A DNA stretch of 64,000 nucleotides, taken from contig CAXXFF010000003.1 in assembly GCA_963676835.2 (NCBI GenBank), positions 64,001 through 128,000 on the forward strand, given 5' to 3'. This document shows positions 8,515-19,464 of this stretch, in pieces. The translations under genes and the position numbers were made by a program. Each line of letters begins with the position of its first letter. The stretch's first letter is position 1. The notes beneath the pieces are model-generated. The model saw only the letters and a program-made list of their open reading frames with translations. It searched no databases and was not told the origin of the DNA. This DNA is from Marispirochaeta sp. GTDB taxonomy: Bacteria > Spirochaetota > Spirochaetia > JC444 > Marispirochaetaceae.

Positions 8515-8561
8515 CCGAACGACTGTATAGCCCCGGGGCTGCGTACAGTAAATTGAAAGTT

Positions 8562-11500
8562 ATGAATACAACAGAAATCAAACAGTGGTTTTCACCCCTT
8601 ATAGCTGAATGGTTCTCCCGCAAGTATCATACCCCCACTAATGCCCAGAAACTGGTGTGGCAGCAGGCAGCTTCAGATGAGCATATGCTTCTTACCTCTC
8701 CAACCGGCACGGGTAAGACTCTGGCAGCCTTTTTAACAGCCATAGACCGGCTGATCAGTGGAGTATGGCCTGCCGGTCAACTTACAGTGCTTTATATTTC
8801 ACCCCTGAAGGCCCTGAACAGGGATGTACAGTTAAACCTTTTGACGCCCTTAAAAGAAATACAAAATCTGGCATCTGAACAGAATATTACAATACCGTCA
8901 ATCAACATAGAAACAAGAAGCGGCGATACAAGTGCATACAGACGGAGAAAAATATTGTCGCATCCTCCGGAGATACTCATCACAACCCCTGAGAGCCTGA
9001 ACATGCTGATTTCCACCGTCTCAGGTTATGCACTATTTTCTCAACTTAAATGTGTCATTCTGGATGAAATTCATAACCTTGCGGGCAGCAAAAGAGGCAC
9101 CCACCTGATAACTGCGGTTGAAAGAATCGTTCCCCTCTCCGGGGAATTTCAGCGGATAGGATTATCTGCCACCATAGGTAATCCTGAAACAATGCGGGAT
9201 TTCATGGGCGGATTCATAAAGCCGGAAACTCCCAGGACTGTCAGACTTCTCAGATCAGAAGACACCCGTACAATAGAATTAAAGGTCGATACAGTTCCGG
9301 CTCAGGATTTTTCAAGTATGGAACATCTCTCTTCCGGAGAAAAGACAGATACGATCTGGAAACGTCTTGCCGGAATTATCCGCCCTCAGCTGAGCAGTGA
9401 AAAATCGACCCTCGTTTTTGTTAATTCAAGGAGACTTGCTGAAAAACTGACCTATCTGATAAATCTGGATTCAGTTGAACCTGTTGCCTATGCGCATCAT
9501 GGATCATTAAGCCGTGAAATACGGCTGCTGGCCGAAGAGCGGCTTAAAAGCGGCCGGCTCAAATGTCTTGTTGCAACAAACTCTCTGGAGCTGGGAATAG
9601 ATATTGGAGACCTTGATCACATAATTCTTGTTCAGACACCCATGTCTCTCTCTTCGGCCTTTCAGAAACTGGGGAGAGCCGGTCACGCTGTGGGAGGTAT
9701 AAGCCGGGGAACCCTATACTGCACCCACGGAAGAGACCTCCTGGCAGCGGCAGCTCTCTGCAGTGCAATCGATGGTAAAATAATTGAATCAACTATTCCC
9801 CCTGAAAATTCACTCGATGTTCTTTCCCAGATAATTGTGTCTCATCTTGTCCGAGGAGAAAATGATCTCGACAATCTATATGCAACGTTAAAAAAATCCT
9901 GGCCTTATAGAAATCTTGCAAAGGAAGAGTTCCTTAAAACAGAGGAAATGCTGCGCGGGTTCTACCAGGGAATAAAGATACAGAATCTCCCTGTTTTTAT
10001 ACTAGACACCGATCAAGGCACCTCCGCTTCTCCCGCTGCCAGGGGAGCGCTGTTCTCATCGGGAGGAACTATACCTGACCGCGGTTATTACACTCTTAAA
10101 CATGCAGGGAATGGTTCTCTCATCGGAGAACTTGATGAGGAATTTGTATGGGAACGAAAAACCGGTGATATTTTCGGATATGCCAGCAGACGCTGGCGGA
10201 TAGTCAGCATAAACAGTCAGGTTATGGAGGTTCTCCCTACCAGCAGCCCCGCCAACTCAGCTTCTTTCTTTATAGCAGAACAGTTTCTTGCGGGACCTGA
10301 AGGCTATTCCCTGACCAGGGATCTTCTTGACCGTTTTTCAGCCGACATTAACCTCAGGAAAACTCTGGAGACCAAATTCAGTTTTACTCCCGATGCAGCG
10401 GAGGGTCTTCAAGGTTTCATCGAAAAACAGTCCAGGACCGCCATGCTTCCGGGACACAATAGAATAATCAGCGAATACACACGCCTCTCGAATACCGGAA
10501 ACCTGCTGGAAATTCTTTTTATTCATACCTTTCGGGGAGGTAAAATAAACGCTCCGTTAGGGCTTATTCTGCACAAAAAAATGGAAAAGAGCGGAAATCC
10601 CGTATCTGTCAGCTGGGATAACGATTCAATTCTAATTGTTTCACCGGAAAAACTGCCGAGAGATATCTTCAGTTATGTGTCTCCCGAGGATATTACAGGT
10701 ACTCTTGTGGAAGCCCTTTCCGGCAGCGGTATTTATGGGACACGTTTCAGAGAAGCCGCAGGCCGCTCTCTAATACTGGCGAGAGATGGTTTCGGCAGAC
10801 GCACTCCCCTCTGGCTGTCCCGCTTACGGGCAAAACGGCTGTATTCAAGCCTGCACCGCTTTCCCGGTTTTCCATTGCTTATGGAAGCTGCCCATGAGTG
10901 TCTGGAACAGCAGTTCGACCTTCAGGGATTACGGAATTTTTTACAGGAAATCAAAACATCCTTACTTGATACAGTAGTAGTGGAAACCGATAGTCCATCA
11001 CCATTCTGCTCTGCCGTTTTGTGGCAACAGGTAAATGCTCAGATCTATTCGGATGACGTTCCAGAAAACTTTCCTGTAGATACTAAAGAGTGGGCAGAAC
11101 GAATCAGCTCTGGTGAGTTTCTGAAACCGGCTATTAAAGAGAGCGTAATAGATGATTTTCTTAAACGGTTGAGAAGGACAGCCCCTGAATACAGGCCTTT
11201 AAGCGCGGCTGATCTTGAATCTGTTGTACTGGAGCGACAGTACATATCTATCAGTGAGTTTAAAAAATATGCCGGTTTTCTGGAAAAGGAATATATCCTG
11301 AAACCAGATGGAAAAATCGGTTCCTTCCGAGGATGGGTCGCTTCCGGCGATCGTCTCTCCAGACTGAAACTACCCGATAATAGTGACGAGCTTTATACTA
11401 TCTTCATCGCCTGGTTTTACTATGCTGGGCCTTTTGAAAAAGAAGAGTTCAGTACAGATGATTTTTCAGTAAGCCCCTTCGAAAAAGAGACCGCTCTGAG

Positions 11501-12800
11501 AATGGTGGAAAGGGCCCTGGATGAAGGACTGATAATTGAAGACCGTTTAGGTGAAGCAGAGAACCGCAAGGAACTTATCAGCCGCGAGGCCTACGAACAG
11601 CTTCTTCGTTTTGCCCGGGGAAGAAATCGATCCGCAGAATTTAACTCTTTAAACGTGAATGAATTTGCAGAGATGTTCGCTGGATGGCAGACTACAGAAC
11701 GTAAAAGTTCAATTCTCGACATTTGCCTCCAATATGAAGGACTGGCCATTAAGAAATCAGTCTGGGACACCATTGTCTTTCCCTTACGAACAATGGATTA
11801 TAAAGCTGATAAGGTAGATGATATTCTCCATGGGAGAGAGCTGTTTTTTATCGGCGGCACCTCCGACAAGAGAACCTTCTGGCATCTGAACGACAATGAC
11901 CTGCGTACCTGTCCGCCTGAAACTGCATATGCAGGTTCGCCGGTACCGCATCGGGGTGCCTACAATTTCTGGGAAATCAGCAGCGAATTCACAGGCACCA
12001 ATGCCGAACTTGCGGCACTCCTGAAAAAATATCACACCAGAGGAGTACTATGTTCGGATACCTGGAACTATGGTGATAACTCAACAGAGTCGAAAAAAGT
12101 ACGCCCGGACAGGAAAGATTTTTCCCGTTGGCAGCAGACCCTGCCGATACAAGGCAGCTGGTTCCAGGCACCATTCGCGGAACCCGGGAACTCCCTGGAA
12201 GAACTGGAAAAAGCCAAAGAACGGGTTCGCATTTTATTTGACCGCTATCCCGTTCTGTTCAGGGAAATGCTCTACCGGGAAACCCGGCCATTCCGATGGA
12301 TGGACATTTTTCAGGCTTTGCGTTTGATGGAATTTTCAGGAGAAGTTATCAGCGGCAACTTTATTAACGCTGTTCCAGGGCTGCAATTCATCCAGCCGCA
12401 AAACAGGGAAAAACTACAGTTCTCTGACAGGCAGAGTTCACTGAGACTTCTACATGTTCAGGATCCGGCTTCTCTTTCCGGCATCCCTTTAAATGTTTTG
12501 AAAGACACTTTTCCTCCCCGAAGGGGAGATCTCTGGTATATCATGGAGGCCGGCACAATGGTGCTCTCCTATGCTCCGAATAAGGGTAACCTTCAGATTT
12601 ATTCAGAGAGTTCTGCGGAAAAAGCCTTTCACCACCTCTGCGCAAAAATGATCAGTACCCATGGCTTACCAGACAAAATACAGATACGTCAGATCAATAA
12701 TGAAAGCGCAGCTTTGTCGCCCTATTTATCTCTTCTTGAAAAAAACGGCTTTTCCAGAGGGTACAAGGAGTATACCCTCTGGAATTATAAAAGCTCTTAA
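8562..12800 (+). CDS. lhr: Full-length Lhr DEAD/H helicase
   Basis: SPTGTGKT, SPLKAL, TTPESL, DEIH, LSAT, HHGSLS, LELGIDIG, GRAGH, GTIPD, GELDEEF; C-terminal domain with GxF..GLQF and DPA. Confidence 0.92.
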   Translation: MNTTEIKQWFSPLIAEWFSRKYHTPTNAQKLVWQQAASDEHMLLTSPTGTGKTLAAFLTAIDRLISGVWPAGQLTVLYISPLKALNRDVQLNLLTPLKEIQNLASEQNITIPSINIETRSGDTSAYRRRKILSHPPEILITTPESLNMLISTVSGYALFSQLKCVILDEIHNLAGSKRGTHLITAVERIVPLSGEFQRIGLSATIGNPETMRDFMGGFIKPETPRTVRLLRSEDTRTIELKVDTVPAQDFSSMEHLSSGEKTDTIWKRLAGIIRPQLSSEKSTLVFVNSRRLAEKLTYLINLDSVEPVAYAHHGSLSREIRLLAEERLKSGRLKCLVATNSLELGIDIGDLDHIILVQTPMSLSSAFQKLGRAGHAVGGISRGTLYCTHGRDLLAAAALCSAIDGKIIESTIPPENSLDVLSQIIVSHLVRGENDLDNLYATLKKSWPYRNLAKEEFLKTEEMLRGFYQGIKIQNLPVFILDTDQGTSASPAARGALFSSGGTIPDRGYYTLKHAGNGSLIGELDEEFVWERKTGDIFGYASRRWRIVSINSQVMEVLPTSSPANSASFFIAEQFLAGPEGYSLTRDLLDRFSADINLRKTLETKFSFTPDAAEGLQGFIEKQSRTAMLPGHNRIISEYTRLSNTGNLLEILFIHTFRGGKINAPLGLILHKKMEKSGNPVSVSWDNDSILIVSPEKLPRDIFSYVSPEDITGTLVEALSGSGIYGTRFREAAGRSLILARDGFGRRTPLWLSRLRAKRLYSSLHRFPGFPLLMEAAHECLEQQFDLQGLRNFLQEIKTSLLDTVVVETDSPSPFCSAVLWQQVNAQIYSDDVPENFPVDTKEWAERISSGEFLKPAIKESVIDDFLKRLRRTAPEYRPLSAADLESVVLERQYISISEFKKYAGFLEKEYILKPDGKIGSFRGWVASGDRLSRLKLPDNSDELYTIFIAWFYYAGPFEKEEFSTDDFSVSPFEKETALRMVERALDEGLIIEDRLGEAENRKELISREAYEQLLRFARGRNRSAEFNSLNVNEFAEMFAGWQTTERKSSILDICLQYEGLAIKKSVWDTIVFPLRTMDYKADKVDDILHGRELFFIGGTSDKRTFWHLNDNDLRTCPPETAYAGSPVPHRGAYNFWEISSEFTGTNAELAALLKKYHTRGVLCSDTWNYGDNSTESKKVRPDRKDFSRWQQTLPIQGSWFQAPFAEPGNSLEELEKAKERVRILFDRYPVLFREMLYRETRPFRWMDIFQALRLMEFSGEVISGNFINAVPGLQFIQPQNREKLQFSDRQSSLRLLHVQDPASLSGIPLNVLKDTFPPRRGDLWYIMEAGTMVLSYAPNKGNLQIYSESSAEKAFHHLCAKMISTHGLPDKIQIRQINNESAALSPYLSLLEKNGFSRGYKEYTLWNYKSS

Positions 12801-12814
12801 CATAGAATCGTCCT

Positions 12815-13759
12815 ATGGAAAAACTTTCCCGCCTGGATTCAGATTCAGAGCTCCGCAAAAAGATCCTTCCCTACTGTCGTCTCAAGACAGGTGAAATCTG
12901 GGAAGATAAGATAAACGGTCACAGAGTCGGTACAGGCGATGTCCGGGACCATGACGTTACCTCCAATCTGTTTGACGGCAGAAAGGCCGACCTGTTTCTC
13001 AATGACCCACCCTATAATATCAGTGTAGGCAGCAGAAATACCGATGCCCTGTCGCAATACTCTGTTGAACAATATATTGAGTTTACACGGGACTGGTTAA
13101 ATTCCACCCTTATCTATCTTAACGATCATGCCCACTTTTATTTATGGACAGGCGCAGATCAGCGTGCAGGGTTCCAGCCTCTCCCGGAACTGATGCTTCT
13201 CATGAGGGAATATCCCCAACTTACCAGCAGAAGCTTTATTACAATGCGTAATCAGCGGGGATACGGAACTCAGAATAACTGGATGAGTGTACGACAGGAA
13301 CTTCTGTATTATATAAAAGGGAACCCGGGGTTCGATGTCCGCTATACGGATATCCCCAAAATTCTCAAAGGTTATTACAAGACAGTGTCCGGTAAAAGAA
13401 CAGAAAACATGGAACGCAGTAAAAGTGACTGCATAAGGCCGGGGAACGTATGGGTAGATATACAGCAGGTATTTTACCGGATGAAGGAAAATGTCCCCGG
13501 AGCGTATGCACAAAAACCGTTAAAAGCCGCTCTTCGCATCCTGGATGCATGCAGCTTAGGCCCAGGATCGATAACAGCCGACTTTTTCAGCCATTCAGGA
13601 ACCAGCCTGATAGCTGCCGAACAGAAAGGTCTTCAGTGCTTCACCATGGACATTGATCCGGTTTTTGCCGAATTATCCATCCGCCGTCTTGAACATTTCC
13701 GGAAAACCGGAGAACCCGGCTGGCAGACAGAATCTCCTTTTCCGGAAATATTCCCCTGA
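12815..13759 (+). CDS. Orphan N6A/N4C methyltransferase (beta-class motif order)
   Basis: NDPPY motif IV precedes QKP and a variant motif I, DFFSHSGT. Confidence 0.85.
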   Translation: MEKLSRLDSDSELRKKILPYCRLKTGEIWEDKINGHRVGTGDVRDHDVTSNLFDGRKADLFLNDPPYNISVGSRNTDALSQYSVEQYIEFTRDWLNSTLIYLNDHAHFYLWTGADQRAGFQPLPELMLLMREYPQLTSRSFITMRNQRGYGTQNNWMSVRQELLYYIKGNPGFDVRYTDIPKILKGYYKTVSGKRTENMERSKSDCIRPGNVWVDIQQVFYRMKENVPGAYAQKPLKAALRILDACSLGPGSITADFFSHSGTSLIAAEQKGLQCFTMDIDPVFAELSIRRLEHFRKTGEPGWQTESPFPEIFP

Positions 13760-13838: not shown

Positions 13839-13867
13839 TTGCTACCCGATATATAGTGTGTTAAGAT
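13839..13867 (+). promoter_or_regulatory. Putative promoter of the nrd operon
   Basis: TTGCTA-17 nt-TAAGAT with TG extension. Confidence 0.5.
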
Positions 13868-13917
13868 AGCTGAAAGATCAAACAAGGCACTATATATAAC
13901 GGCCCTACATATAGCGT
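13844..13917. promoter_or_regulatory. NrdR boxes (three candidates)
   Basis: ACCCGATATATAGTGT (13844-59), GCACTATATATAACGG (13887-902) and GCCCTACATATAGCGT (13902-17), compared with consensus acaCwAtATaTwGtgt. Confidence 0.75.
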
Positions 13918-13957
13918 GTATTATGCCAGGTTAAATAATTTCTTTGTTGGTAGGAAA

Positions 13958-14413
13958 ATGCGTTGTCCCCATTGTCAGGAAACAGAAGATAAGGTTATAG
14001 AGTCCAGACAGAATGCCAGCGGAACCTCAATCCGTCGACGCCGTGAGTGTACCGGTTGCGGGTACAGATTCACCTCCTATGAGAGGATAGAAGAAAAACC
14101 GCTCATGGTGATAAAACGGGACGGCCGCAGGGAACCCTTTTCCATAGAAAAAATTGAAGAAGGAATTCAGCGCTCATTGCAGAAACGTCCGGTTTCCCAA
14201 AAGCAGGTAGAAGATTTACTCCATGCAATTGAAGATGAAGCAGTACTGCTTGCCCGGAACAGCCGGGAGATCAAAGCCGAGAACATCGGCGATCTGGTGT
14301 TGCGTAAACTTTATGAACTGGATGGTGTAGCTTATGTCCGTTTTGCATCAGTATACCGCATGTTTGACAATGTAGGTGAATTTATCAACGAAATAGAAAA
14401 ACTGTCCCGATAG
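13958..14413 (+). CDS. nrdR: Ribonucleotide reductase repressor
   Basis: CPHC, IRRRRECxxC..RFTSYE, ATP cone, AYVRFASVY. Start at ATG 13958. Confidence 0.97.
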   Translation: MRCPHCQETEDKVIESRQNASGTSIRRRRECTGCGYRFTSYERIEEKPLMVIKRDGRREPFSIEKIEEGIQRSLQKRPVSQKQVEDLLHAIEDEAVLLARNSREIKAENIGDLVLRKLYELDGVAYVRFASVYRMFDNVGEFINEIEKLSR

Positions 14414-14467: not shown

Positions 14468-16573
14468 ATGTCCGAAAACAGCTGGAAAGATTTTTTAAAA
14501 GAACATCATTCTGTCAGCCAGGAAGGGCCGGTACGACAGGTGGTCAAACGGGACGGCGAAACAGAAAGCTACGACCGCTGGCGTATTGCATCAGCTGTCA
14601 GCCGGGCTGTAAATGCAGCCCGGGACACGGATGATCAGGCGCTGGTAGAGGTTCTTACCTCCAAGGTAGAACGGCGCCTGCTTGAGTTCATGCAGTCCCG
14701 TCACCCCAATAGTGCCCCTGCGGTGGAAGAGATTCAGGATCTGGTGGAAAATGTTCTTATCGACAGCGGCGAAAGCGATATTGCCAAGAAATATATTATC
14801 TACCGCGCCCGGCATGAGGTCATGCGGGATACAAAAAAACTTATGGTTGATATCAACTCAACCATGGACGGTTACCTCAGCCAGTCAGACTGGCGGGTTA
14901 ATGAGAACGCCAATGTAAATTTTTCCCTTGGCGGACTTATCCTGCATAATTCCGGAACCATAACGGCAAACTACTGGCTTAAAAACATCTACCCCGAAGA
15001 AATTGCAGATGCCCATAGAAAAGCCGACTTTCATATTCATGATCTCTCAATGTTTTCCGGCTACTGTGCCGGCTGGTCCTTAAGACAGCTTATTCAGGAA
15101 GGTCTTGGCGGAGTACCCGATAAGATCACCTCAACTCCGGCAAAACATCTTTCCACCCTTATCCAGCAGGTGGTTAACTTCCTCGGCATTATGCAGAATG
15201 AGTGGGCAGGCGCTCAGGCACTTTCAAGCTTTGATACCTACCTTGCTCCTTTTGTAAAAGTGGACAATCTCCAGGAGGAAGAGGTAAAACAGGCTATTCA
15301 GAGTTTTGTCTTCGGCGTAAACACCCCCTCGCGCTGGGGAAGCCAGGCACCTTTTACCAACATAACCCTGGACTGGACAGTACCTCCGGACCTTGCGGAC
15401 AAAAAAGCTCTTGTCGGCGGCGAAGAGATGAAGTTCACCTACGGAGAGTGTCAGGAAGAGATGGACCTTATCAACAAGGTCTTTATTCAGCTAATGCTTG
15501 ATGGCGATGCAAACGGAAGGGGATTTCAGTATCCCATTCCAACCTATAACATCACCAGAGATTTCGGATGGGACAGCCCAAATGCGGATCTGTTGTTTAC
15601 CATGACCGCAAAGTACGGTACCCCCTATTTTCAGAACTTTATCAACTCCGACCTGGATCCCGGCGATGTACGTTCCATGTGCTGCCGGCTGCAGCTGGAT
15701 AAGCGGGAACTGCGAAAACGCGGCGGCGGGCTTTTCGGCTCAGATGAGTTTACCGGCTCTATCGGGGTTGTTACGGTCAATCTGCCAAGAATCGGTTACC
15801 TTTCCCGTGATAAGGGGGAGTTCTACCGCAGACTTTCGCGGATGATGGATCTGGCTGCGGAATCTCTCACCATTAAACGAAAGGTGATAAACCGCCTCAT
15901 GGAAGGAGGGCTCTTCCCCTACACCATGAGGTACCTGAAACACCTCAATAACCATTTCTCCACCATTGGCATCTGCGGTATGAACGAATGCCTTAAGAAC
16001 TTCATGGGTGTGGATATTACCACCATGGAAGGAAAACAGTTTGCCATTGAAATTCTTGATTTTATGAGAGACCGCCTTGCTGATTATCAGGAACGTACAG
16101 GCGATCTGTTTAACCTGGAGGCAACCCCCGCAGAGAGCACCAGCTACCGCCTGGCCAAGCATGACAAAGAACATTATCCCAATATTATTACCGGCGGTCA
16201 GGAAGAGGTCTATTATACAAACTCAACCCAGCTCCCGGTTGAATATACAGAAGATGTATTCGAAGCCCTTGACCACCAGGATGACCTGCAGACCCGCTAT
16301 ACCGGAGGAACCGTTTTCCATGGCCTCGTAGGCGAAGCAATAGAAGATACAGAATCCTGTAAAAACCTGGTGAAGGCAGTTGCCAGTAATTACCGGCTGC
16401 CCTACTTTACCATAACACCAACCTTCTCTATCTGTCCGGTACATGGATACCTGTCGGGTGAACATTTCGACTGCCCGAAATGCAGAGAGGAAGAAGAAAT
16501 ACGGCTGAAAACAGAGATCAATAACCTCAAAGCCCTGAAAAAAGAGCTGCAGTCTCAGGCTGCCCCTGTATAA
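14468..16573 (+). CDS. nrdD: Class III ribonucleotide reductase, catalytic subunit lacking the glycyl-radical loop
   Basis: ATP cone, HIHDL..YCAG, RSMCCRL finger loop, EATPAE, YTGGT, CPVH..CPKC Zn site; no RxxGY motif before the stop. Confidence 0.95.
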   Translation: MSENSWKDFLKEHHSVSQEGPVRQVVKRDGETESYDRWRIASAVSRAVNAARDTDDQALVEVLTSKVERRLLEFMQSRHPNSAPAVEEIQDLVENVLIDSGESDIAKKYIIYRARHEVMRDTKKLMVDINSTMDGYLSQSDWRVNENANVNFSLGGLILHNSGTITANYWLKNIYPEEIADAHRKADFHIHDLSMFSGYCAGWSLRQLIQEGLGGVPDKITSTPAKHLSTLIQQVVNFLGIMQNEWAGAQALSSFDTYLAPFVKVDNLQEEEVKQAIQSFVFGVNTPSRWGSQAPFTNITLDWTVPPDLADKKALVGGEEMKFTYGECQEEMDLINKVFIQLMLDGDANGRGFQYPIPTYNITRDFGWDSPNADLLFTMTAKYGTPYFQNFINSDLDPGDVRSMCCRLQLDKRELRKRGGGLFGSDEFTGSIGVVTVNLPRIGYLSRDKGEFYRRLSRMMDLAAESLTIKRKVINRLMEGGLFPYTMRYLKHLNNHFSTIGICGMNECLKNFMGVDITTMEGKQFAIEILDFMRDRLADYQERTGDLFNLEATPAESTSYRLAKHDKEHYPNIITGGQEEVYYTNSTQLPVEYTEDVFEALDHQDDLQTRYTGGTVFHGLVGEAIEDTESCKNLVKAVASNYRLPYFTITPTFSICPVHGYLSGEHFDCPKCREEEEIRLKTEINNLKALKKELQSQAAPV

Positions 16574-16603
16574 ACGAAACGGTTTAAAGAAAGGACGGAA
16601 AGA

Positions 16604-17128
16604 ATGAAGAAAACAGAAATGACCATCAGCGACGTGGAAAAGAAACTCGAAGAACTTACCATGAACCTCAAGAATGTCCGGGGAAGAACAACTGAAGTCT
16701 ACACACGGATAGTAGGTTATTACCGTTCAGTGAAAAACTGGAACCGGGGTAAACGGGAAGAATACGATTACAGAACTCCCTATAATGTTCCCGCAGATAT
16801 GCCCAAAGCAGAAATGAAGAGGTCCGCAGATGCGTTTAGTGCTGACACTGCAGCTTCACCGGAAACCTCCGGCATTGCCAGCTACCAGTATTTTTTCCGC
16901 ACAACCTGCCCTAACTGTCCGCCGGTAAAAAGTTACCTCAGCGAGCTGGGCTTCAGCGGCAATGAAATTAATGTTGATATGGAAGAAGGCTACAGCCTGG
17001 CCGGAAATCTTGCAGTCTGCGCTACTCCGACTGTTATCTTCAGGGATGTCAGGGGAGATGAAATATTCCGGGCTTCCAACCTTCAGGATTTAATCAAATC
17101 CTTTGAAAAAGAACAGGCTGCGGTTTAA
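16604..17128 (+). CDS. NrdD glycyl-radical domain fused to a thioredoxin/glutaredoxin-like domain
   Basis: TEVYTRIVGYYRSVKNWNRGKREE (Gly38), Ala/Ser-rich linker, CPNC (C102/C105), cis-Pro motif ATPT. Confidence 0.9.
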   Translation: MKKTEMTISDVEKKLEELTMNLKNVRGRTTEVYTRIVGYYRSVKNWNRGKREEYDYRTPYNVPADMPKAEMKRSADAFSADTAASPETSGIASYQYFFRTTCPNCPPVKSYLSELGFSGNEINVDMEEGYSLAGNLAVCATPTVIFRDVRGDEIFRASNLQDLIKSFEKEQAAV

Positions 17129-17130
17129 GT

Positions 17131-17832
17131 CTGAACTGGGGCCTTATAAAAACATCTCTTTTAGATTATCCCGGCAAGGTAGCTGCAGTCCTGTTCACCC
17201 GGGGCTGCAATTACCGCTGCCCCTTCTGTCATAATCCGGAACTCGTAACAGGACCGGAACCATCAGATTTTCTCACCAGGCAAGAAGTTCTCTCATATCT
17301 GACAAAGCGTCGAAATGTCCTTGGCGGCGTCTCCATTACAGGAGGCGAACCGCTGATGCATGAGGAGACACTTTCAATGATCGAGAGCATCCATGCCCTG
17401 GGACTGCCGGTAAAGCTTGACACTAACGGCTCCTTTCCTGAAAGGCTTACTGAAAGCGGTGCCGATTATTTTGCCATGGATATTAAGACAGCCTTCTCAC
17501 GATATGCATCCGTGCTGAATGAAAATGCGGATATTGAAGCATCTGTAGATAAAGTAAAGCAGTCTATCAGACTTATCCTGAAATCCGGTACTCCTCACCA
17601 GTTTCGTACCACCATGGTTCCGGGAATTGTTGGTCCGGAAGATTTTAATGAGATTATTCCCTCGGTAAAAGGTGCATATTCCTATCTGCTTTCAGGGTTC
17701 AGACCGGGGAACACCCTGGATACAAATTTCAGTAATCTTGAACCATATGATGATGCGGTTCTAACCGGAACTGCTGCGATGCTTGAAGGAGCGGGTATAA
17801 AAGTAAAGATTGCATGGAATAAAACAGCTTAG
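17131..17832 (+). CDS. nrdG: Anaerobic RNR activating radical SAM enzyme; non-canonical start
   Basis: Frame open from 17107: LNWGLIKTSLLDYPGKVAAVLFTRGCNYRCPFCHNP..ITGGEP..KLDTNG..AMDIK. The ORF-track start at 17356 omits CxxxCxxC. CTG 17131 proposed as start. Confidence 0.9.
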   Translation: MNWGLIKTSLLDYPGKVAAVLFTRGCNYRCPFCHNPELVTGPEPSDFLTRQEVLSYLTKRRNVLGGVSITGGEPLMHEETLSMIESIHALGLPVKLDTNGSFPERLTESGADYFAMDIKTAFSRYASVLNENADIEASVDKVKQSIRLILKSGTPHQFRTTMVPGIVGPEDFNEIIPSVKGAYSYLLSGFRPGNTLDTNFSNLEPYDDAVLTGTAAMLEGAGIKVKIAWNKTA

Positions 17833-18197: not shown

Positions 18198-19343
18198 TTA
18201 CGTCAAATTTTCCCCGGGATTCGTAAACAGATGGTCAAACTGGGAGTGAAAACGACGGGGGACCATGATTTCCTGAACCGCAGACAGGGCGAAATCATCG
18301 GTCATGCCGGCAATATAATCAATCACAACACTCTTACCTGAGGCCTCTTCACTGCGATAAAGTTCCTGCATTTTGACAAGATATTCGCCAAAACGGGCAG
18401 CAAGAGTATTCCCTTCCCTTGAGTAGCCTGCATAATTATCCTTATGGGAGTCATAAAGATCGATGAGATACTCAAAAAGGGTAAACAGGATACGCCGGAA
18501 GTATCGGTGATACTCGCTGAGCAGTCGGTGCTTGTATATATTGCGGTAATTAAAATTTCTGAATTCCAGCAGAGCTTCATATACTTCGCGGGAAAATCCG
18601 ATACTTCCTGTTCGTAGAGAAGAGCGGATCATATCATTTACCAGGGTATCTATTATTTCACCATTGGATTCGCCGAGGACATCCCCTACGGCATGGGGCA
18701 AATCATCCCTGGATAACATTTTCAGATTAACAGCATCCTCAAAATCACGGCCGATGTAAGCGATTTTATCAGACATCCGCACAATACATCCTTCCCAGGT
18801 GGAGGGATACCGGTTTCTGTTTTCAATTGAGGAAAGATCCTTCAACTCGAAATCCGGGACAATTGCCTGTTCGAACTGCTCACCGCAATGATTTATTATC
18901 CCGTCACGGACGGCATAGGTCAGATTAAGACCTTTTCCTTTATTGGCAAGCTTATCTACAACCCTTAAGGAATATAGTTCATGGGCAAAAGGCTCACCTA
19001 AAAGTTCTTCAACAATTTTTTCTCCCACATGCCCGAAGGGAGTATGCCCGAGGTCATGGCCAAGACCTATAGCCCAGGCCAGATCTGCATCAAGATTAAG
19101 GGAGCGGCAGACCGTTGCTGAAACGCTTGCCACATGCAGGACATGTTCAATGCGGGTACAGATATGATCATTGTCAGGGGTAAAAAAGACCTGCGTTTTA
19201 TGCTTGAGACGCCTGAAAGGGTTTGAATGAATGATGGCGGTGGTATCACGAAAATAGGCACCCCGTATATCATTGTCCCTGGGTCGTATACGTCCGGTAA
19301 GTTCTTCTCTGGTGAGGGTACTGGAAAAAAATAGACTGCTCAT
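18198..19343 (-). CDS. dgt: dGTPase-like HD-domain dNTP triphosphohydrolase
   Basis: FRRLKHKTQVF, HDLGHTPFGH.GE, SDKIAY, DYIAGMTD. Start uncertain (19343 or 19367). Confidence 0.88.
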   Translation of the reverse strand: MSSLFFSSTLTREELTGRIRPRDNDIRGAYFRDTTAIIHSNPFRRLKHKTQVFFTPDNDHICTRIEHVLHVASVSATVCRSLNLDADLAWAIGLGHDLGHTPFGHVGEKIVEELLGEPFAHELYSLRVVDKLANKGKGLNLTYAVRDGIINHCGEQFEQAIVPDFELKDLSSIENRNRYPSTWEGCIVRMSDKIAYIGRDFEDAVNLKMLSRDDLPHAVGDVLGESNGEIIDTLVNDMIRSSLRTGSIGFSREVYEALLEFRNFNYRNIYKHRLLSEYHRYFRRILFTLFEYLIDLYDSHKDNYAGYSREGNTLAARFGEYLVKMQELYRSEEASGKSVVIDYIAGMTDDFALSAVQEIMVPRRFHSQFDHLFTNPGENLT

Positions 19344-19464
19344 ACTTACTATAAGTCTGCCTTCCACGGATACCTGCTGTCAAGTTCAACTTGAAATTTA
19401 TATGAGAAAGTTGCATTCCAACTTTTGAATGCTTAAGATAACTGTATGCAGGAGCATCCGTAGT

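Follow-up and report, generated by a model that had tools for sequence, protein, structure and literature searches.

The window, a stretch of 64,000 nucleotides from a Marispirochaeta sp. genome, contains the genes for a ribonucleotide reductase (RNR) of class III whose catalytic chain appears in two pieces. In the list of open reading frames (ORFs) of the window, nrdR, nrdD (14468-16573, 701 amino acids, aa), a small ORF (16604-17128, 174 aa) and nrdG follow one another on the plus strand, on which all operon features given below lie. In the textbook form of NrdD the radical glycine sits in the tail of the same chain, and a single O2 hit destroys the enzyme. At this locus the glycyl-radical loop is encoded by the small ORF, and we are highly confident that the radical glycine is supplied in trans. 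The two products are referred to here as the large and the small chain.

The large chain (14468..16573) matched the NrdD profiles PRK08270 (1092 bits) and TIGR02487 (489 bits), and has the ten-stranded barrel expected of class III RNRs. A preliminary description of this DNA had recognised in it an ATP cone, a zinc site and the motifs YCAG, SMCCRL and EATPAE, while missing any R..GY motif, and our analysis bears this out throughout. The ATP cone (aa 24-117; 14537..14818) was detected with PF03477 at E 1.6e-19. YCAG begins at residue 199; its Cys200 (15065..15067), the βA cysteine, aligns with the YC of T. maritima NrdD and is invariant in 67 split homologues. The finger-loop motif SMCCRL (residue 403; M404, C405 and C406; 15674..15691) was found at 63 of 64 split loci, the remaining one not being covered at this point. 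Glu551 of EATPAE (16118..16120), the putative active-site proton donor, is invariant, and so is the zinc site formed by C656, H659, C669 and C672 (16433..16483; motifs CPVHG at 656 and CPKC at 669) in 67 homologues, where metal binding is likely by analogy with the family. No R..GY motif was found anywhere in the 701 residues. The Pfam family NRDD (PF13597) is divided between the two chains: of its 562 profile positions the large one covers 1-533 and the small one 532-562. The large chain has no glycine loop at its own C-terminus. A genome-wide search revealed no second nrdD and no second NrdD-type glycine loop elsewhere in this genome. The pyruvate formate-lyase (PFL)-type domain PF01228 was present in two unrelated full-length glycyl-radical enzymes elsewhere in the genome, each with its own activase.

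The small chain (16604..17128), for which 730 homologues of 95-305 aa were collected, consists of a helix, the glycine loop, a linker and a redoxin. Its glycyl-radical loop (aa 31-57; 16694..16774) starts with EVYTRIVGY at aa 31, an EVYTRIVGYY-type loop, and holds the Gly38 codon at 16715-16717. Across 104 homologues, E31, Y33, R35-R41 (T34 being the exception), N45-N47, G49, K50, E53 and R57 are invariant, as are C102, C105 and P142. PF01228 was not found in the chain, the loop belonging to PF13597. A variable linker of low model confidence (16787..16873; predicted local distance difference test, pLDDT, 50-72) leads to the thioredoxin-fold domain (16877..17122), with CPNC at aa 102 (16907-16918) and the cis-Pro motif TPT. 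Pfam Glutaredoxin matched aa 96-129 with 23.6 bits (cut-off 22.9), and a CxxC is present in the small chain of all 64 split loci, where the distance from the glycine to the first cysteine is 38-97 aa (median 68.5). The AlphaFold model has a helix at 8-23, a poorly ordered glycine segment, a helix at 43-56, then the uncertain linker and a thioredoxin fold of high confidence (pLDDT 95-98 for aa 91-160), whose best Foldseek matches are thioredoxins; fold, CxxC and cis-Pro together identify it as a thioredoxin-fold redoxin. The gene is followed by nrdG (17131..17832), encoding an NrdG2 radical S-adenosylmethionine (SAM) activase (TIGR02495, 167.6 bits; cut-off 131.15), as the cognate activase of a class III RNR should be. 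It probably starts with the CTG at 17131-17133, two bases past the small-gene stop; congeners have CTG or TTG there. Profiles, motifs and model agree with the earlier account of this gene as the missing glycine segment, a linker and a CPNC domain. That account had the gene beginning with the glycine segment; it begins instead with a helix of about 25 aa, and a matching helix ends the large chain.

The two ORFs share one frame here and are separated by a single TAA (16571) and ten codons, and a sequencing error therefore had to be excluded. The segment between them (16571..16603) comprises the stop, a 30-nt gap and a Shine-Dalgarno-like AAGGA at 16591-16595; purine-rich sites also precede the small-gene ATG in relatives. 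We searched 61 genomes with the small chain and obtained matches in 44, of which 35 are split with a redoxin, three split without, three single-chain with and three single-chain without one. The 30 best loci were fetched, and the break point was identical in all 27 where the zinc site was visible, 10 of them in frame and 17 not; in all five congeners the halves are out of frame. Scanning GTDB with the small chain gave 588 confirmed stretches out of 593. The best 80 were kept; they overlap the 30-locus set and, having been ordered by similarity to that chain, are biased against fusions. Nearly all are titled Spirochaetota, the nearest named ones being Marispirochaeta, and they comprised 64 splits with neighbouring halves, in frame in 19 and out of frame in 45, and no fused gene, with 16 further loci where nrdD was not found upstream within the fetched flank. 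An in-frame share of 19/64 is close to the one in three that chance would give. In the genus g35, all five genomes carry nrdR-nrdD and the glycine gene with nrdG at separate sites (L203-L207, L069-L074), at a distance of 97-602 kb in those four that are single contigs, the operon being broken exactly at the split point. From the frame spread among relatives and the g35 separation it follows that the in-frame state at this locus is due to chance, and that the TAA is no error; the case for it rests on comparative data, not on reads. A contig identical throughout the window, X1, may be the source of this DNA, and two contigs crossing the stop, X2 and X3, with 1 and 7 differences at places not listed, were not used as evidence. 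On these sequence comparisons we regard it as virtually certain that the split, as first proposed, is real and conserved, and the complex model described below is consistent with it.

In single-chain relatives, the EVY strand follows within about 6 residues of the zinc CxxC. In split forms of the kind seen here, which we call type A, the large chain ends in a tail of 21-39 residues and the small chain gains about 25 N-terminal residues. In the window these correspond to heptad helices at the C-terminus of the large chain (aa 673-698; 16484..16561) and at the N-terminus of the small chain (aa 8-23; 16625..16672). Helices of this kind occur in all type-A split forms and are absent from the single-chain loci L031-L033, L040-L042, L079-L081 and L106-L109. 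At 64 loci, one of LIVMF occupies tail positions 8, 12 and 15 in 97% and position 22 in 86%, and the small chain is hydrophobic at -24, -21, -17, -14, -10 and -7 in 89, 98, 100, 61, 97 and 97%, a periodicity that describes two heptad faces. A complex model of the large and small chains scored 0.84, against 0.01 for the best of three controls, with at least 80% of contacts agreeing between runs and a partner pLDDT of 73. Of 157 solved complexes, 116 attained the mark used for this score, as did 2 of 215 mismatched pairs; the mark is roughly applicable here, where our own alignments were supplied. Its best-defined contacts lay small-chain strand 30-34 on large-chain residues 650-655, resembling solved one-chain NrdD. 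The interface further lists large-chain residues 676-698 and small-chain residues 6-25, both in heptad steps, for which no solved NrdD supplies a template. On this reading the two helix faces would pack on each other in antiparallel fashion, and it is very likely that the pair serves as the dock between the chains. A position of Gly38 near the finger-loop cysteine, which had been suggested as a check, was not obtained, since C200, C405 and C406 are not among the confident contacts.

With regard to the reductant, the T. maritima residue aligned with E551 is number 495, and we take E551 to be equivalent to Glu438 of Neisseria bacilliformis NrdD; this position is Leu in P. copri and Tyr in 9d3x. 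The finger loop reads MCCR, with Met404 kept, against SCCR in N. bacilliformis and T. maritima. According to the relevant parts of Burnim et al., N. bacilliformis has SCCR, the thioredoxin-only clades are without Met, and MCCR enzymes are equipped for either formate or thioredoxin (PMC9669993); Aurelius et al. class the MCCR enzymes as NrdDh4 (PMC4493059), where this one falls by motif alone. The proposed N. bacilliformis-type subtype is therefore borne out for the active-site Glu and the CC finger loop, and fails for the Met-free SCCR of thioredoxin-only NrdD2. The genome encodes a thioredoxin reductase above cut-off (382 bits) and a ferredoxin:thioredoxin reductase (FTR)-like protein, whose gene (L052, C2:1706115-1706381) directly follows one for a 99-aa CGFC redoxin-like protein; the FTR-like protein is a candidate electron source. 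A gshA-type ligase (PF04262) was not found in this 97%-complete genome, other glutathione routes not having been searched for. A true PFL was not found in 27 of the 35 split-with-redoxin genomes, nor in the present genome, although all five congeners have one, and the lack here may reflect a loss or an assembly gap. Since C102, C105 and P142 are invariant in the 104 homologues, it is plausible that one subunit brings both the radical and the reducing equivalents, and we consider it fairly probable that the redoxin is the working reductant. Redoxin-less small chains are also common: 428 matches of 30-84 aa, some of them fragments, include one named Treponema pedis, and the g35 small chain lacks a redoxin, with a CxC-bearing C-terminal tail in L204. 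The presence of PFL was rejected as a predictor of redoxin loss, as no PFL was found in any of the three redoxin-less split genomes tested (G035, G039, G049).

To place the split in the phylum, we sampled 151 genomes, 77 of which have NrdD, and examined 70 NrdD loci. There were 26 type-A splits (five with the small gene elsewhere), 35 splits of a second type and nine single-chain forms; with 61 of 70 loci split, the two-chain form is the majority state in this spirochaete sample. In the second type (type B; L082-L122, from other Spirochaetota) the zinc site reads CxxH...CxxH and a short helix closes the large chain; a glycine gene of 42-67 aa, free of both helix and redoxin, lies within the fetched stretch in 32 of the 35. 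In the tree, type B lies away from type A, and single-chain forms fall between the two. Single-chain counterparts of type B carrying the remnant insert were observed at L112, L121 and L216. A third kind of split lies on the megaplasmid of the betaproteobacterium Cupriavidus metallidurans CH34 (L208:2220-4886), in the order nrdD, short glycine gene, nrdG; the nrdDG entry of the CH34 genome paper, in the part available, gives Rmet_5137 and Rmet_5139 and no comment. There are thus at least three unrelated split types. Type A forms one clade with two single-chain redoxin fusions, L031 and L032 (support 99/95), and this clade is sister to a group holding another single-chain redoxin fusion; the domain order of such fusions is that of the split forms. 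The branching suggests that fusion to the redoxin preceded the split. A re-fusion of L031 and L032 is not shown, the approximately unbiased (AU) test not having rejected a single split-form clade (p 0.112). The trees were built without L107 and L109 (skipped) and without L036, L042, L054, L056 and L059 (fragments or duplicates), and the label "no redoxin" of L062 reflects a contig end. A search of 50% representatives gave 866 matches at 1e-10, without names; a set of 7992 short matches, contig-end fragments among them, was left out of the split-gene count. In two metagenome contigs (L244:3625-3915 and L283:864-1184), an intact nrdD with its own glycine loop is followed by an extra gene of 96-106 aa that encodes another glycine loop along with two CxxC pairs, with nrdG next in L283. 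These extra genes are candidates for a GrcA-like spare part of class III RNR; L266 and the viral L358 look similar.

Taking these observations together, we think it likely that the locus encodes an obligate two-chain class III RNR, zipped by helices, in which NrdG places the radical on Gly38 and the tethered redoxin is the reductant. The small chain would be an obligate subunit because no full-length NrdD chain is encoded. Comparison of sequences shows that the break lies after the zinc knuckle and ahead of the strand leading to the glycine loop, each new end having gained a heptad helix. The helices would pack together and strand 30-34 would complete a sheet with 650-655, bringing the loop to where one-chain NrdD has it. 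By analogy with known NrdD, NrdG would generate the radical on Gly38, from which it would pass to C406 for nucleotide reduction; a C405-C200 disulfide would be formed, with E551 as acid. The CPNC domain, on its leash of 38-97 residues, would then re-reduce this disulfide and be recharged by thioredoxin reductase or the FTR-like protein.

Several points weigh against this proposal. It is drawn from comparison of sequences and a predicted complex, and the complex score may reflect likeness to solved one-chain NrdD, as is usual for the halves of a split gene. The pairing of the helices was read from two residue lists and not from listed helix-helix pairs, and the redoxin domain, like the three catalytic cysteines, lies outside the confident contacts. 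Met404 is retained, which may leave formate possible as reductant, and the absence of PFL here carries little weight because all five congeners have the enzyme. A redoxin is absent in 3 of 38 split genomes and in g35, and is therefore not essential to the two-chain architecture. Finally, a class II NrdJ (L045, C3:131233-133380) is encoded about 3 kb past the window end, so that NrdD need not be essential in this genome.

The alternative that fares best concerns what the split is for: it may have been selected as a repair device, an O2-cut small chain being swapped and the barrel re-used, with viruses supplying extra small chains that would sustain deoxynucleotide synthesis in the host. IMG/VR was scanned with type-A and type-B profiles, with flanks of up to 3 kb (L289-L447). 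Among the 79 loci obtained with the type-A profile, 53 had a small glycine ORF without an nrdD match in the flanks, 22 of these being short-flanked; with the type-B profile there were 60 such loci of 80. The heptad test was passed by 24 of the 79. We picked 22 helix-type virus records by eye, which were then read and searched in full; 21 carry the glycine segment only and one has the barrel, which is absent from all six records of at least 90% completeness. The viral glycine genes lie beside terminase, primase or thymidylate synthase genes, and L369 encodes a complete helix-Gly-CPNC chain. Searches of annotated phages and plasmids gave only 2 and 3 records. A virus would profit only if its copy docks on a barrel of the host; this favours action in trans and perhaps exchange. 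T4 Y06I provides a precedent for PFL (PMC13450708), and the recurrence of the split in unrelated types, as well as the persistence of the small gene beside nrdG where the operon breaks, would also suit repair. Against it, a cut at Gly38 would leave the helix and strand of aa 1-37 docked, which could block exchange, and the viral copies could be decoys or merely raise small-chain dosage; supply, repair or inhibition fit the viral data alike. Some helix-type viral copies have altered residues past the glycine (L416, L419, L390, L401), and these are possible decoys. We therefore regard a swap of the small chain following damage by O2 as an open possibility, for which we stop just short of an even chance.

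A further alternative keeps the two-chain enzyme and makes the redoxin a passenger, or an activator that keeps the cysteines or the zinc site reduced or aids NrdG, with formate or free thioredoxin as the real reductant. Redoxin-less splits and Met404 leave room for it, but the CxxC and cis-Pro are invariant, E551 is present, PFL was not found in most split genomes and single-chain NrdD-redoxin fusions retain the domain order, and we consider it unlikely. Somewhat more doubtful still is neutral fission, a break at a tolerant loop after which the helices only restored the link without any gain. Helix-free splits exist, and the helix-less single chains L031 and L032 inside the split clade indicate that the states interconvert or coexist; on the other hand, the prevalence of splits in the phylum sample and the viruses that carry the small chain alone speak against it, and the AU test did not reject one split clade, so that re-fusion is not shown. 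Sequencing error, a pseudogene or stop read-through yielding one chain, which the shared frame and single TAA might have invited, was rejected as scarcely credible given the frame spread among relatives, the out-of-frame congeners, the ribosome-binding site of the small gene, the distant g35 halves and the invariant catalytic residues.

Upstream of the enzyme genes lies nrdR, the RNR repressor gene (13916..14413; TIGR00244, 180.6 bits, cut-off 124.65), whose start is likely the ATG at 13958. Two putative NrdR-box-like 16-mers (13844-13859 and 13902-13917) precede it, picked out by a pattern match to the box consensus. A promoter and terminator scan gave counts near chance and placed none between the large- and small-chain genes. 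The flanks of the operon (8553-13759 and 18198-19367) contain a helicase ORF, presumably Lhr-like from its motifs, an N6/N4 DNA methylase and an HD-domain dGTPase-like gene.

The closest known enzymes are the NrdDs of T. maritima (4COI, 4U3E) and N. bacilliformis, which share the barrel, the βA cysteine, the double-Cys finger loop, the Glu, the zinc site, the glycine-loop sequence and the NrdG activase (best PDB match, E 2e-37). Here, by contrast, the loop is on a second chain joined through new helices, Met rather than Ser precedes CC, and a redoxin is built in; the five solved NrdD sequences found are all single chains of 605-743 aa. GrcA/YfiD and T4 Y06I, cofactors of PFL, are likewise small free proteins with a radical glycine acting in trans, and viral forms occur there too. 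As a precedent, GrcA/YfiD holds for the autonomous glycyl-radical protein; its PFL-type domain and a partner with its own loop have no counterpart here, where the enzyme is an RNR, the loop belongs to PF13597 and not PF01228, a docking helix and redoxin are added, and the chain is an obligate subunit rather than a spare, as the single nrdD of the genome is without a glycine loop. In the part available, a 2026 review describes glycyl-radical spare parts for formate lyases only (PMC13450708). The split class II NrdJa/NrdJb of P. aeruginosa is likewise an RNR cut into a barrel and a C-terminal part for re-reduction (PMC9669993, PMC4520616), and the Grx-ATP cone-NrdB of F. ignava likewise tethers a redoxin to an RNR subunit, the fused Grx being an efficient working reductant of this class I enzyme (PMC6187632). 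In the present case the redoxin sits on the class III radical chain, has CPNC, and occurs where no gshA-type ligase was found. One grx::nrdD fusion, from Lachnospiraceae TWA4, is listed in the same paper's accessible text without being studied (PMC6187632). No description of a split class III RNR was found in full-text literature searches, subscription papers, supplements and Wei's thesis being outside the scope of the search, and the two-chain form is apparently undescribed so far. A large RNR phylogeny dropped sequences of fewer than 400 residues, a filter that would hide the small chain.

A two-chain NrdD accounts for many annotated nrdD genes that seem truncated and for tiny annotated "NRDD" proteins. 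It also makes several questions testable, namely whether glycyl-radical enzymes beyond PFL have spare parts, a question that the 2026 review poses as unanswered, how NrdG gains access to the buried glycine, using a separable 62-residue part, and whether the reductant of MCCR-plus-Glu enzymes is the tethered redoxin or formate. We tentatively entertain, as an idea we lean somewhat against, a broader view in which many prokaryotes carry the NrdD glycyl radical on an exchangeable part that is replaced after oxygen damage, spirochaetes having added a coiled-coil zip and their own reductant, and phages encoding host-matched cartridges, helix included. If true, such an exchangeable cartridge would be the first case of spare parts among glycyl-radical enzymes outside PFL, and the phage cartridges would repair or take over the host's deoxynucleoside triphosphate synthesis.

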